Positions 32,120 to 34,513 of a DNA stretch of 38,727 nt are shown here, in pieces. Below the pieces are notes generated by a model. The model saw only the letters and a list, made by a program, of their open reading frames with translations, had not been told where the DNA came from and did not search any database. The position numbers and the translations under genes were made by a program. Numbering within the stretch: the first letter of the stretch is position 1; the number at the start of each line of letters is the position of its first letter. This DNA comes from a virus, in the UHGV virus genome UHGV-2005300. One strand, written 5' to 3'.

Positions 32120-34513
32120 ATGGCTAATTACCGTGATTTGTTAGAGCAGGCTGGCGCACGTTACGGTGTGCCAGAAGGGTTGATGACTGCACTGGGTGCC
32201 AAGGAGTCTTCTTACAACCCTGCCGCAGTAAGCTCCGCCGGGGCTGTAGGATTGACTCAGGTCATGCCTGGGACATGGCGTGATATGGGTTATACCGATG
32301 AGCAAATGCAAAACCCCGAATATCAGGCTGACGCTGGCGCGCGCTATCTGGCAAAGATGTACCAGCAGTTTGGTAACTGGCGTGACGCTCTTCAGGCTTA
32401 TCACGACGGTCCCGGCAACGTTATGAAGGCAAAGCGTGGTGAATATACGCCAGGACCTGAAGGCCGCGGTTACGTTGATGATCGCTTTGCTCAATGGGCG
32501 GGTGACCCGGTGACAGACTCAACAGTCGAACAGCGCGCCACCTCTGCAAAGGTACATCCTCAGCAAGACCCTAACAACCCGTTTGCACAACTGGAAGTAC
32601 AGTCATCCGAACAAGTATCGGCATCAGGTGTGCAGTCAGACCCAAATAATCCATTTGCTCAGATTGAGCAGCAGGCAGCCAGTCAGCAGCCACCTCAACC
32701 CGTAAGTTCTGTCGCACCGAAACCTGTTCAGCAACAAGGCGGAATAATGTCTGACCTTGGTAATGGACTTGCTGAAACCGGGCGCGGCTTACTACAGGCA
32801 GGAATCAACGTAGCGAACATACCTGCTGAACTCACTGATGCTGTAACAAGCGCGGCGGCTTGGGCTGGCGGTAAACTCGGCATTGGCGATGGTACATATC
32901 AACCAGCGCCACGAGTAACAACGCAGGGATTAGAGCAGGACTTTGGCCTTCAGCAAGGCGCGCTGACTCCACAAACGACAGAGGGAAGGGTATTTGCTGA
33001 AGCATTGCCTTACCTCACTCCTGCTGGCGTTGAGAGAGCGGCAACACAGGCACCAACACTTGCTGGTCGAATTGCTCAGGGGGCAACTCGCCTTCTCGCT
33101 GAAAACGCAGTTGGATCACTTGCTGCAAATAGTGCGAAAGATGATGCGGAAGCACTCGCCACCGATTTAGGCGTTGGTGTGCTGGCTGGCGGTGCTATTA
33201 ACGCTGCCGGACGTGGATTAGGTGCTGCTTATCGTGGCGTTCGTGGTTCTATTGCGCCAGAAGCGCAGCAGGCTATCAGATTTGCAGAGCGTGAAGGAGT
33301 TCCTCTGCACACCACAGACCTGTTACAGCCTACTTCCCGCGTCGGGAAAATGGCGCAGACTACAGCAGAAAATATACCACTGGCTGGCACAAGCGGAATA
33401 AGAGCAACGCAACAGGAAGCGAGAAGTCAGTTGGTGCAGAGATTTGCTGATAAATTCGGCGAGTATGATCCAGCGGTTGTTATTGACAGCCTTAAAGCGA
33501 AAACATCAGGAATTCGTCGTGCCGCCGGTAATCGACTGGAGCAGGTTCAGAATGCTATGGCTGGAGTAAACATTCAGCCTGCGCGAGCAATTCAGCAGAT
33601 TGATACAGAAATATCTAATCTGCAGAAGCTTGGTAAGGTCGCCGATAACGAGACTATTTCAAAACTTCAGTCCTATCGTGATGAGCTTGTTCGCAATGCT
33701 GGTCCTGATGGTCCGGTAAATCTGGATTTGAAGCAATTAAGCGACCTGCGCAGTCAGTTCAGAATGGACGTGAAGGGTGAGCGACCAGTGTTACCAAACC
33801 GTTCCGATGCTGCTATTCAGCGCGTTTACAAGGCAATGACCGACGATATCAATGGTGCCATTGGTCAGAATCTTGGCAACGATACTCTCCGTAAATATCA
33901 GCAGGCCAATGCCGTCTATGCTGACGAAGCAGCGAAACTAAAGAATACCAGGCTGAAGAATGTTCTCATGAAAGGCGATCTGACGCCGGAAGTTGTGAAT
34001 AACATGCTATTCAGCAAGAACAAATCGGAAATTAAGACGCTGTATAACTCAGTTGGTCGCGTTGGAAGAGCGCAAATGCGCAATGGCATCATTGGAAAGG
34101 CGATAGAGAAATCAGGTGGTTCACCTGATCAGTTCCTTCGACAGCTTAACATCCTGCAAAACCAGACTGGCATCACATTTAAAGGTCAGGATGCTGCTTA
34201 TCTGAAAGGATTGAAAAACTACCTTCAATCAACGCAGCAGGCTGCAAAAGCGGCTGTAACAACACCAACAGGCCAGCAAACCATCCCGTTCATTATCGGG
34301 TATGGGACGGCAATGAACCCTGCAACAACTGGCGCAGCAGTAAGCTACGGACTTCTTACTCGCGCCTATGAGAGCGAGCCATTCAGAAATGCAATGCTCC
34401 GAATGGCAAACACCCCACGCGGATCAACAGTGTTCGAGAAAGCCATGCAGCAGGCGCAAAAGGCCATTAACGCTATGACGCAGGGGGCTAAGTCTGATGC
34501 GTTGTCAGAATAG
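32120..34513 (+). CDS. Ejection protein (gp16 position) with N-terminal lytic transglycosylase domain
   Basis: 797 aa; N-terminus has an SLT-like signature (AKESSYNPAAVSSAGAVGLTQVMPGTW...AGARYL); tandem DPNNPFAQ repeats. Confidence 0.8.
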   Translation: MANYRDLLEQAGARYGVPEGLMTALGAKESSYNPAAVSSAGAVGLTQVMPGTWRDMGYTDEQMQNPEYQADAGARYLAKMYQQFGNWRDALQAYHDGPGNVMKAKRGEYTPGPEGRGYVDDRFAQWAGDPVTDSTVEQRATSAKVHPQQDPNNPFAQLEVQSSEQVSASGVQSDPNNPFAQIEQQAASQQPPQPVSSVAPKPVQQQGGIMSDLGNGLAETGRGLLQAGINVANIPAELTDAVTSAAAWAGGKLGIGDGTYQPAPRVTTQGLEQDFGLQQGALTPQTTEGRVFAEALPYLTPAGVERAATQAPTLAGRIAQGATRLLAENAVGSLAANSAKDDAEALATDLGVGVLAGGAINAAGRGLGAAYRGVRGSIAPEAQQAIRFAEREGVPLHTTDLLQPTSRVGKMAQTTAENIPLAGTSGIRATQQEARSQLVQRFADKFGEYDPAVVIDSLKAKTSGIRRAAGNRLEQVQNAMAGVNIQPARAIQQIDTEISNLQKLGKVADNETISKLQSYRDELVRNAGPDGPVNLDLKQLSDLRSQFRMDVKGERPVLPNRSDAAIQRVYKAMTDDINGAIGQNLGNDTLRKYQQANAVYADEAAKLKNTRLKNVLMKGDLTPEVVNNMLFSKNKSEIKTLYNSVGRVGRAQMRNGIIGKAIEKSGGSPDQFLRQLNILQNQTGITFKGQDAAYLKGLKNYLQSTQQAAKAAVTTPTGQQTIPFIIGYGTAMNPATTGAAVSYGLLTRAYESEPFRNAMLRMANTPRGSTVFEKAMQQAQKAINAMTQGAKSDALSE

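Follow-up and report, generated by a model that had tools for sequence, protein, structure and literature searches.

A mosaic gp16-family ejection protein with a lytic transglycosylase domain and a twin peptide motif in a P22-like prophage

Does a P22-like phage carry a murein-cutting domain on one of its ejected proteins, and what is the short peptide that stands twice behind that domain? These questions are raised by UHGV virus genome UHGV-2005300, a stretch of 38,727 nucleotides that we analyzed at its full length and refer to as the window. At 32120–34513 on the plus strand, an open reading frame (ORF) with an ATG start encodes a 797-residue ejection (DNA transfer) protein at the gp16 position, following the genes for gp7 and gp20. 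The original prediction, made from the sequence alone, had given this length and position and had put P22 gp16 at 609 residues; both lengths proved accurate. The phrog_770 profile (“DNA transfer protein”) covers residues 108–797 (E = 4.5 × 10−238), and PF26808 (Phage_P22_gp16), a model missing from the Pfam copy used for the window scan, is precomputed on 797-residue homologues 98–99% identical to the window protein. We consider it probable that this is a mosaic gp16-family ejection protein, in which a cassette made of a GH23 domain and a twin motif is joined to an Sf6-type body, and that it cuts murein during delivery; docking of the motifs to the tail of gp20 is put forward as a hypothesis.

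The SLT-like signature noted earlier in the first ~120 residues was recovered by both profile and structure searches. Pfam SLT (PF01464) matched residues 7–110 (32138–32449, plus strand; E = 2.9 × 10−25) at 88.5 bits, well over the cutoff of 21.3, and the folded module extends to about residue 127–143. An alignment of the window protein with 88 SLT-domain proteins contains eight invariant columns, all of which are kept (E29, S30, A42, G44, Q47, T52, Y94, and G97). The predicted catalytic glutamate, E29 of the E-S motif (codon 32204–32206, plus strand, placed by alignment), lies opposite E478 of Slt70 (1qsa; E = 4.6 × 10−10). The second SLT motif, G-L-x-Q, is present as G44-L45-T46-Q47, while the third, A-Y-N-x-G, reads A93-Y94-H95-D96-G97 and retains the invariant tyrosine and glycine. 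An AlphaFold2 (AF2) model has predicted local distance difference test (pLDDT) values of 93–98 over residues 11–110 and shows a goose-lysozyme-like alpha-helical fold. A Foldseek search of the PDB with this confident model matched Slt70 (E = 1.1 × 10−5, probability 1.00), and all 50 matches listed were either lytic transglycosylases (among them Slt70, LtgA, Slt, MltE, MltC, MltF, MltD, and Cj0843) or T7 gp16 (7eyb_I, 7k5c_B, and 9jyy_I). Slt70 and MltE, family 1 lytic transglycosylases of Escherichia coli, share the fold and catalytic motifs of the window domain but serve the cell as housekeeping enzymes, carry a signal peptide or lipid anchor, and have other accessory domains.

T7 gp16 (internal virion protein D; 7k5c, 7eyb, and 9jyy) is ejected and bears an N-terminal GH23 domain, as the window protein does. 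The parallel drawn in the original prediction turned out to reflect true homology of the N-terminal domains: BLASTP aligned residues 10–139 of T7 gp16 with residues 2–119 of the window protein at 28% identity (E = 2 × 10−10), placing T7 E37 opposite E29. Beyond the SLT domain, BLASTP found nothing significant between the two proteins, and T7 gp16, at 1318 residues, lacks the NPF(A/D)QF twin motif described below. An extended segment following the SLT domain of T7 gp16 tapes gp15 subunits together (PMC8954989), and the post-SLT segment of the window protein occupies a position analogous to this “molecular tape”. Unlike the P22-type ejection proteins, those of T7 are pre-assembled into a core stack (PMC8954989), and the transglycosylase of T7 gp16 is needed only with highly cross-linked murein (Moak & Molineux, as cited in PMC8954989). 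By analogy with T7, we infer that the window protein would cut murein during DNA delivery. The domain is not the lysis enzyme, because a holin/endolysin/Rz cassette lies apart from the gp16 gene, at 17026–18243.

The SLT domain is 99–100% conserved in dozens of E. coli prophages and several isolated phages. Further afield, virulent phages of the P22 supergroup, namely IME279 and Sortsne (Sortsnevirus), IME_EC2 (Murrayvirus), Skarpretter (Skarprettervirus), C130_2 (Hungariovirus), and the Kosakonia phages Kc259 and Kc166B, have the same gene order, an SLT domain 55–63% identical to that of the window and including AYHDGPGN, the twin motif, and the gp20 tail; their gp16-like proteins differ in being 977–1047 residues long. 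This level of identity, with the same AYHDG variant shared across virulent genera, indicates long-term purifying selection on the SLT domain.

The remainder of the protein has another origin. Megablast showed that nucleotides 1–618 of the gene (residues 1–206) are 99.7% identical to Sf101, Dewey, and Huey, while nucleotides 676–2394 are 95% identical to Sf6 gene 13. The junction falls within a Q/P-rich linker (residues 184–225; 32669–32794, plus strand), as judged from megablast coverage and alignment: Sf101-type sequence stops at about 32737 and Sf6-type sequence starts at about 32795. Profiles, alignment, and model secondary structure identify what follows (32744–34510, plus strand) as an all-helical P22 gp16-family body of the Sf6 gp13 type. 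Only this all-helical secondary structure was taken from the full-length AF2 model, which was poor (shallow alignment, mean pLDDT 44). The body had been described as rich in Ala and Gly, which is true of residues 209–400 (20% Ala, 15% Gly), whereas residues 401–797 are ordinary helical sequence. Moderately hydrophobic Ala/Gly-rich segments occur at residues 224–242, 318–363, and 708–742; the highest 19-residue Kyte–Doolittle mean in the body is 1.36, and no classical transmembrane helix was found there.

Comparison with known phages showed how freely the two parts have been combined. The DNA for residues 226–797 is 95% identical to Sf6 gene 13 (product gp13), and the body has ~35% protein identity to P22 gp16, with the same gene order in both phages; P22 gp16 and Sf6 gp13, however, begin with short non-enzymatic cassettes that have neither SLT nor the twin motif, and their gp20 partners lack the tail. 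Conversely, Sf101 gp13, IME10, Huey, Dewey, APC_JM3.2, and phiKp_30 have the same SLT-plus-repeat cassette (99.5–99.7%) and the same C-terminal half of gp20. The whole IME10 protein is 99% identical to that of the window, whereas Sf101 carries the cassette on another gp16 body, giving a protein of 911 residues with 28% identity over the last 400 residues. The Sf6-type body occurs naturally with at least four N-terminal cassettes: SLT plus repeats (797 or 813 residues in total), Sf6-type (665 residues), P22-type, starting MKVTANGKTF... (643 residues), and one starting MAYSREQLMTAL... (639 residues). All four reach a conserved GG(I/F)(M/I)SDLG segment through a Q/P-rich linker, and the SLT domain is found in the first only.

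The neighboring gp20 gene is mosaic in a matching way. The first 200 residues of the window gp20 homologue are 91% identical to Sf6 gp12. Its C-terminal half, by contrast, occurs only in phages with the SLT cassette and has 99% identity to that of Sf101 and IME10 but 37% to Sf6 gp12. Whichever of the four N-terminal cassettes gp16 carries, the last 150 residues of gp20 co-vary with it exactly, while the flanks on both sides are exchanged. P22 and L181, which share the P22-type cassette, are 33% identical over the first 200 residues of gp20, 96% over its last 150, and 37% over the last 400 of gp16. The corresponding values are 100%, 99%, and 28% for the window and Sf101 (SLT cassette), and 72%, 99%, and 99% for Sf6 and 720R6 (Sf6-type cassette). 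From this co-variation with swapped flanks, the unit of exchange can be read as the C-terminal part of gp20 together with the N-terminal cassette of gp16. Such a unit fits the structure of P22 in situ, in which gp16 is placed beneath the C-terminal “club foot” of the dodecameric gp20 in a 12:6 gp20:gp16 model, and this foot is suggested to serve as the template on which gp16 assembles at the cytoplasmic membrane (bioRxiv 10.64898/2026.09.03.749273).

In E. coli genomes, recombinants that part the gp20 C-terminal segment from the SLT cassette were found only among decayed prophages (PSJ-23 and others), a comparison with little power at 98–100% identity. The decayed copy in E. coli PSJ-23 (L014, NZ_AP027637.1) has a gp16 without the SLT cassette and an N-terminally truncated gp20 that abuts a truncated Rad52/Rad22-type recombination gene of the early region, illustrating how remnants of the gp20/gp16 module persist. 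Rare singletons fuse the N-terminal part of the needle (gp26), gp7, gp20, or NinG to the gp16 body (P0162, 835 residues; P0147, 798; P0136, 782; P0149, 776; P0154, 767); these are probably deletions in decaying prophages or assembly chimeras.

We then considered the repeated peptide. The original prediction had called it a tandem DPNNPFAQ(L/I)E repeat; the two copies are there, at residues 150–159 (DPNNPFAQLE; 32567–32596, plus strand) and 174–183 (DPNNPFAQIE; 32639–32668, plus strand), but they lie 24 residues apart rather than head to tail. The shared octamers span residues 150–157 (32567–32590) and 174–181 (32639–32662), and only one of 2000 composition-preserving shuffles produced an exact 8-mer repeat. 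Six of the eight codons differ synonymously between the DPNNPFAQ copies, the DNA copies match at 18 of 24 bases, and Tandem Repeats Finder reported nothing at the repeat DNA. Given the synonymous difference at six of eight codons, the repeat is best read as old, with its peptide kept by selection, and as the product of neither a recent DNA duplication nor gene conversion. The linker that holds the motifs is Q/P/S-rich and predicted to be disordered (pLDDT 48–62), with a short low-confidence AF2 helix overlapping or just following each copy (residues 156–160 and 178–187).

The virulent relatives place this peptide in a wider family. Every one of them has a twinned N-x-F-(A/D)-(Q/E)-(F/Y/L/I) motif, with one copy at the extreme N-terminus (MANFFDQFDQ...) and another ~15 residues past the SLT module, whereas both copies in the window protein follow the SLT domain. 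Within each relative the copies match each other: NPFAQF and NPFAQF in Kc259, NFFDQFD twice in IME279, and NMFAQY and NLFAEY in Kc166B. Kc259 also links the NPFAQLE and NPFAQIE of the window to the NPFDQF consensus, and the first window copy aligns with the post-SLT copy of the virulent relatives. The window type, which starts MAN|YRDLL, appears to have lost the N-terminal copy with its linker and has two post-SLT copies instead, so that a pair of copies would have been maintained through the rearrangement. By sequence, then, DPNNPFAQ is a probable variant of a twin N-x-F-D-Q-F-D motif that stands at gp16 N-termini in more than 100 viral contigs.

This motif is accompanied by a distinctive end of gp20. 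The C-terminal tail of the window gp20, APQASIDYLKQHPELSIDFINRYGYLPSLGQ (32027–32116, plus strand), belongs to a widespread tail family. The protein ends ...DFINRYGYLPSLGQ, with R for K, and this divergent tail can be aligned with those of Skarpretter, IME279, and ZP9. The tail is common to the gp20 homologues of the virulent relatives (e.g., ...QQALDYLRKNPDNATKEQFRAKYGYLPEGI) and was found by alignment in neither Sf6 gp12 nor P22 gp20. In Shewanella phage ZP9, the tail is present and the gp16-like protein starts MANPFDQFDAQQENPFDQFD with the twin motif; no SLT was visible by eye in the sequence of this protein, on which no profile scan was run. The combination of tail and twin motif with no visible SLT in ZP9 points to the tail, and not the SLT domain, as the element that the motif accompanies.

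Scans in both directions revealed a tight association. A search of IMG/VR with the tail pattern yielded 43 loci, and in 43 of 43 the next ORF, starting −8 to +25 nucleotides from the stop of the tail ORF, opens with the twin motif; SLT occurs in only eight of these loci, all enterobacterial, where it is placed between the motif copies. The converse scan for NPFDQFD-encoding DNA returned at least 120 stretches, of which 80 were made into loci. Of these 80, 78 have the motif within the first 40 residues of the protein, 61 have two or more copies within the first 60, and none has an SLT domain. The upstream ORF could be evaluated in 72 cases, and in 62 of them its last 30 residues contain F-x-x-K-(Y/F)-G; among all ORFs of at least 100 residues in the same loci, 67 of 2,060 do, and most of these 67 are probably the tail ORFs themselves. 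Two tail subtypes were evident (...FKAKYGYLPEG and ...FDAKYGAGAAAKALGK). Across 102 unique N-termini, strict copies number two in 80, with a median spacing of 14 residues, and copies within a protein are more alike than copies from different proteins (6.43 vs 6.08 of 7 positions; none of 5000 shuffles reached the observed value), although selection on exact NPFDQFD biases these variation statistics toward the consensus. The phrog_2534 and phrog_770 profiles confirm the gp20/gp16 family for the pairs in contigs L026 and L045. No relatives of the tail-bearing gp20-like or motif-bearing gp16-like proteins were found in the PDB, and no paper in the searchable literature mentions the motif or tail sequence. 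The idea that the tail is a remnant or an imitation of the first SLT helix was rejected, as the likeness is within chance (z 0.1–2.4; 57–908 of 2000 shuffles reach the score).

The segment between the motif copies varies in content. In contig L069, a GH73 glucosaminidase (PF01832, E = 4 × 10−15) lies between the two copies, which by its profile match would add another murein hydrolase, of an unrelated fold, at this site. The gp16-position protein there (L069:4658–5677, minus strand) has 970 residues, with GH73 at residues 37–150, and an internal FKAKYG hexamer just before GH73 is identical to the tail of the upstream protein. Elsewhere, a stretch of 90–260 residues with no Pfam match separates the copies (L130:6273–7292, minus strand; L140:2873–3892, plus strand; L062, L083, L088, L104, and L137); in L130 and L140 it reads GNIDIHARPVVRNPDGSISTVRS..., and several of the proteins with such a stretch have a third motif copy at about residues 170–280. 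In L074, L101, L122, and L127, the upstream ORF lacks the tail and ends ...GDHIHV... or ...GPHWHVVIGK, which may resemble the His-x-His end of M15-type cell-wall peptidases.

These observations can be assembled into a working model. By analogy with P22 and T7, the window protein would be part of the virion and would be ejected once gp7 and gp20 have left, and its SLT domain would cleave glycan strands locally in the periplasm. The cut would let the gp20/gp16 conduit cross or settle in the murein layer, and the body would complete the channel at the cytoplasmic membrane. If T7 gp16 is a guide, the SLT domain would matter mainly where peptidoglycan is highly cross-linked, and SLT-bearing and SLT-less cassettes would coexist in close relatives because the need, as in T7, arises only with cross-linked murein. 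In the hypothesis that extends this model, the DPNNPFAQ pair would be a derived form of the ancient twin N-x-F-D-Q-F-D motif, which would dock the gp16-like N-terminus onto the conserved gp20-like C-terminal tail with two tails per gp16; two motifs per gp16 would match the 12 gp20 to 6 gp16 ratio proposed for P22. We propose tentatively, as a possibility short of an even chance, that the twin N-x-F-(D/A)-Q-Φ-(D/E) motif and the “...A(I/V)xxLxxNPxxxxxFxxKYG...” tail form an undescribed and widely conserved docking interface of podovirus ejectosomes, with 2:1 stoichiometry and a site for hydrolase insertion. If docking holds, the two motifs would engage two gp20 tails and so set the 2:1 stoichiometry, and peptidoglycan hydrolases of unrelated folds, such as GH23 here and GH73 in L069, would be inserted preferentially between the motifs or next to them.

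Several points weigh against this account. The coding segments for the gp20 C-terminal part and the gp16 N-terminal cassette are adjacent, which could also yield their co-variation, and genetic linkage of the adjacent tail and motif can by itself give co-inheritance. The 12:6 argument is borrowed, since P22 and Sf6 have neither tail nor motif. Among the 102 N-termini, 15 have one strict copy and 7 have three, in place of two motifs per gp16. Charge complementarity between tail and motif was rejected, because tails with FKAKYG and with FDAKYG both pair with FDQFD. The most divergent metagenomic pairs are unconfirmed as gp20/gp16 homologues, PHROG and Pfam scans of them being mostly uninformative. 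As for murein cutting, AYHDG stands in place of AYNAG (N95H and A96D) in the window protein as in all phage relatives, and the domain is dispensable in principle, as P22 and Sf6 infect with no SLT on gp16.

The main rival to docking, which we regard as somewhat doubtful, is that, instead of pairing with each other, the twin motif and the gp20 tail are both read by a third component, as a capsid-targeting signal, a portal- or scaffold-binding signal for procapsid loading, or a signal for export order. Capsid-targeting sequences of T4 internal proteins stand at the extreme N-terminus, a likeness that counts for a third partner, as do the extreme N-terminal position of the motif in 78 of 80 loci and the extreme C-terminal position of the tail; moreover, the motif varies little against two tail subtypes, which argues against tight pairwise co-evolution. 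The SLT-bearing group fits a terminal targeting signal poorly, however, having one copy ~185 residues into the protein and, in the window, both copies internal (residues 150 and 174), and P22 and Sf6 load gp16 and gp20 with neither tail nor motif. That the DPNNPFAQ repeats are merely a functionless duplication in a flexible linker is hard to credit: the disordered, Q/P/S-rich character of the region (pLDDT 48–62) would allow it, but the peptide has stayed identical despite synonymous divergence, and a twinned homologous motif is kept in distant phages and in those >100 viral contigs.

Other alternatives concern the enzyme itself. The substitutions N95H and A96D in the third motif, along with the absence of the domain from many P22-like phages, could point to a non-catalytic murein-binding anchor or a decaying passenger; we judge this improbable, given that all eight invariant columns, including the catalytic Glu-Ser, are intact, and that the domain is conserved at 99–100% among E. 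coli prophages and phages and at 55–63%, with the same AYHDG, in virulent genera. It is more improbable still that the protein acts from outside as a tail-associated lysin, or as a lysis enzyme, instead of being an ejected internal protein. A phrog_21143 match (“lytic tail fiber protein”) to residues 1–207 (E = 2.9 × 10−145) speaks for such a role, but this label is an automated name, residues 108–797 match the gp16 “DNA transfer protein” family, the gene lies between gp20 and the tailspike, and both a tailspike with a P22 head-binding domain and an endolysin cassette are encoded separately.

The surroundings of the gene are those of a P22-like phage. The 797-residue ORF is the third gene of a gp7–gp20–gp16 cluster, 5′ of the tailspike gene, in which the gp7 homologue (30086–30778, plus strand; PF25688, E = 3.9 × 10−133) is the first ejection-protein gene and is followed by the 443-residue gp20 homologue (30788–32119, plus strand; PF16928, E = 6.3 × 10−68). 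Further members of the cluster are a gp4-like adaptor (26693–27256), a gp10-like gene (27257–28675), a needle with an Sf6-type knob (28675–29628), and a gp14-like gene (29628–30083); P22-type terminase, portal, and coat genes are also in the window. The tailspike (34678–36339, plus strand) joins a P22 head-binding domain (residues 1–113) to a non-P22 receptor-binding part; among PHROGs, it matches “tail spike protein with colanic acid degradation activity” best. A tyrosine integrase (37333–38526, minus strand) adjoins tRNA-Arg(CCT) (38652–38726, minus strand) at the very end of the window; argW is the attachment site of Sf6- and HK620-type phages, and the integrase and attachment site are annotated in Sf6. 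From the P22-type virion genes, the integrase, and the tRNA gene, we conclude that the window is a P22-like prophage integrated at argW. Between tailspike and integrase, where Sf6 has its O-antigen acetylase gene, lies a 201-residue ORF (36425–37030, minus strand) whose repetitive sequence (INGKNNHINIE..., INGDNNTINIG...) is reminiscent of a left-handed beta-helix acyltransferase; Pfam gave no match to this ORF, and its PHROG matches are all of unknown function.

The gene is not new to databases. It is 100% identical to a gene of E. coli strain 1190 (NZ_CP023386.1, 1561439–1563832), whose product is named “lytic transglycosylase domain-containing protein” by RefSeq/PGAP, and one 90%-identity cluster of the 797-residue form holds 1,295 sequences. 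Among 5,426 complete E. coli genomes, the window form is present in 52 (~1%), covered to at least 80% of its length, and the block of gp20 C-terminal segment plus SLT cassette in 66. A protein search with residues 1–225 returned mainly fragments and generic SLT domains. The fusion is thus already catalogued, and ejected proteins with lytic transglycosylase domains are textbook knowledge for T7. An SLT domain in a P22-like gp16 is nowhere described in the searchable literature beyond automated annotation, and a 2022 review states that the lytic transglycosylase domain is absent from P22-like phages.

Annotation of the family is uneven. NCBI gives the name “lytic transglycosylase domain-containing protein” to SLT-less gp16 homologues of 665, 643, and 639 residues (P0145, P0152, P0164, P0191, P0181, and others), among them Sf6 gp13 (L002:4722–6719) and that of VSe13 (L005:2722–4719). 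No SLT was found in Sf6 gp13, P0191, or P0181 with Pfam, or in Sf6 gp13 with NCBIfam, and the name seems to have spread from SLT-bearing members to SLT-less ones. The SLT-bearing gp16 gene of IME10 (L001, NC_019501.1, 6001–8394) is unannotated in its record. In Sortsne (L010, NC_048178.1, ~3400–6449), an uninterrupted ORF of 1015 residues is annotated as small ORFs and a truncated “DNA transfer protein”. In Kc166B (L007, 4908–8058), the SLT part (310 residues) and the body (734 residues) are separate ORFs, through either a real split or a frameshift error.

These results correct the published generalization: several isolated phages of the Lederbergvirus type do have an SLT domain, and it is also encoded in ~1% of complete E. 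coli genomes. The occurrence of the same gp16 body with and without SLT amounts to a natural experiment on when murein cutting helps a short-tailed phage deliver its DNA. The pairing of motif and tail, together with the four co-varying cassettes of gp20 C-terminal and gp16 N-terminal parts, points to a peptide-level interface that would offer a testable handle on ejectosome assembly.

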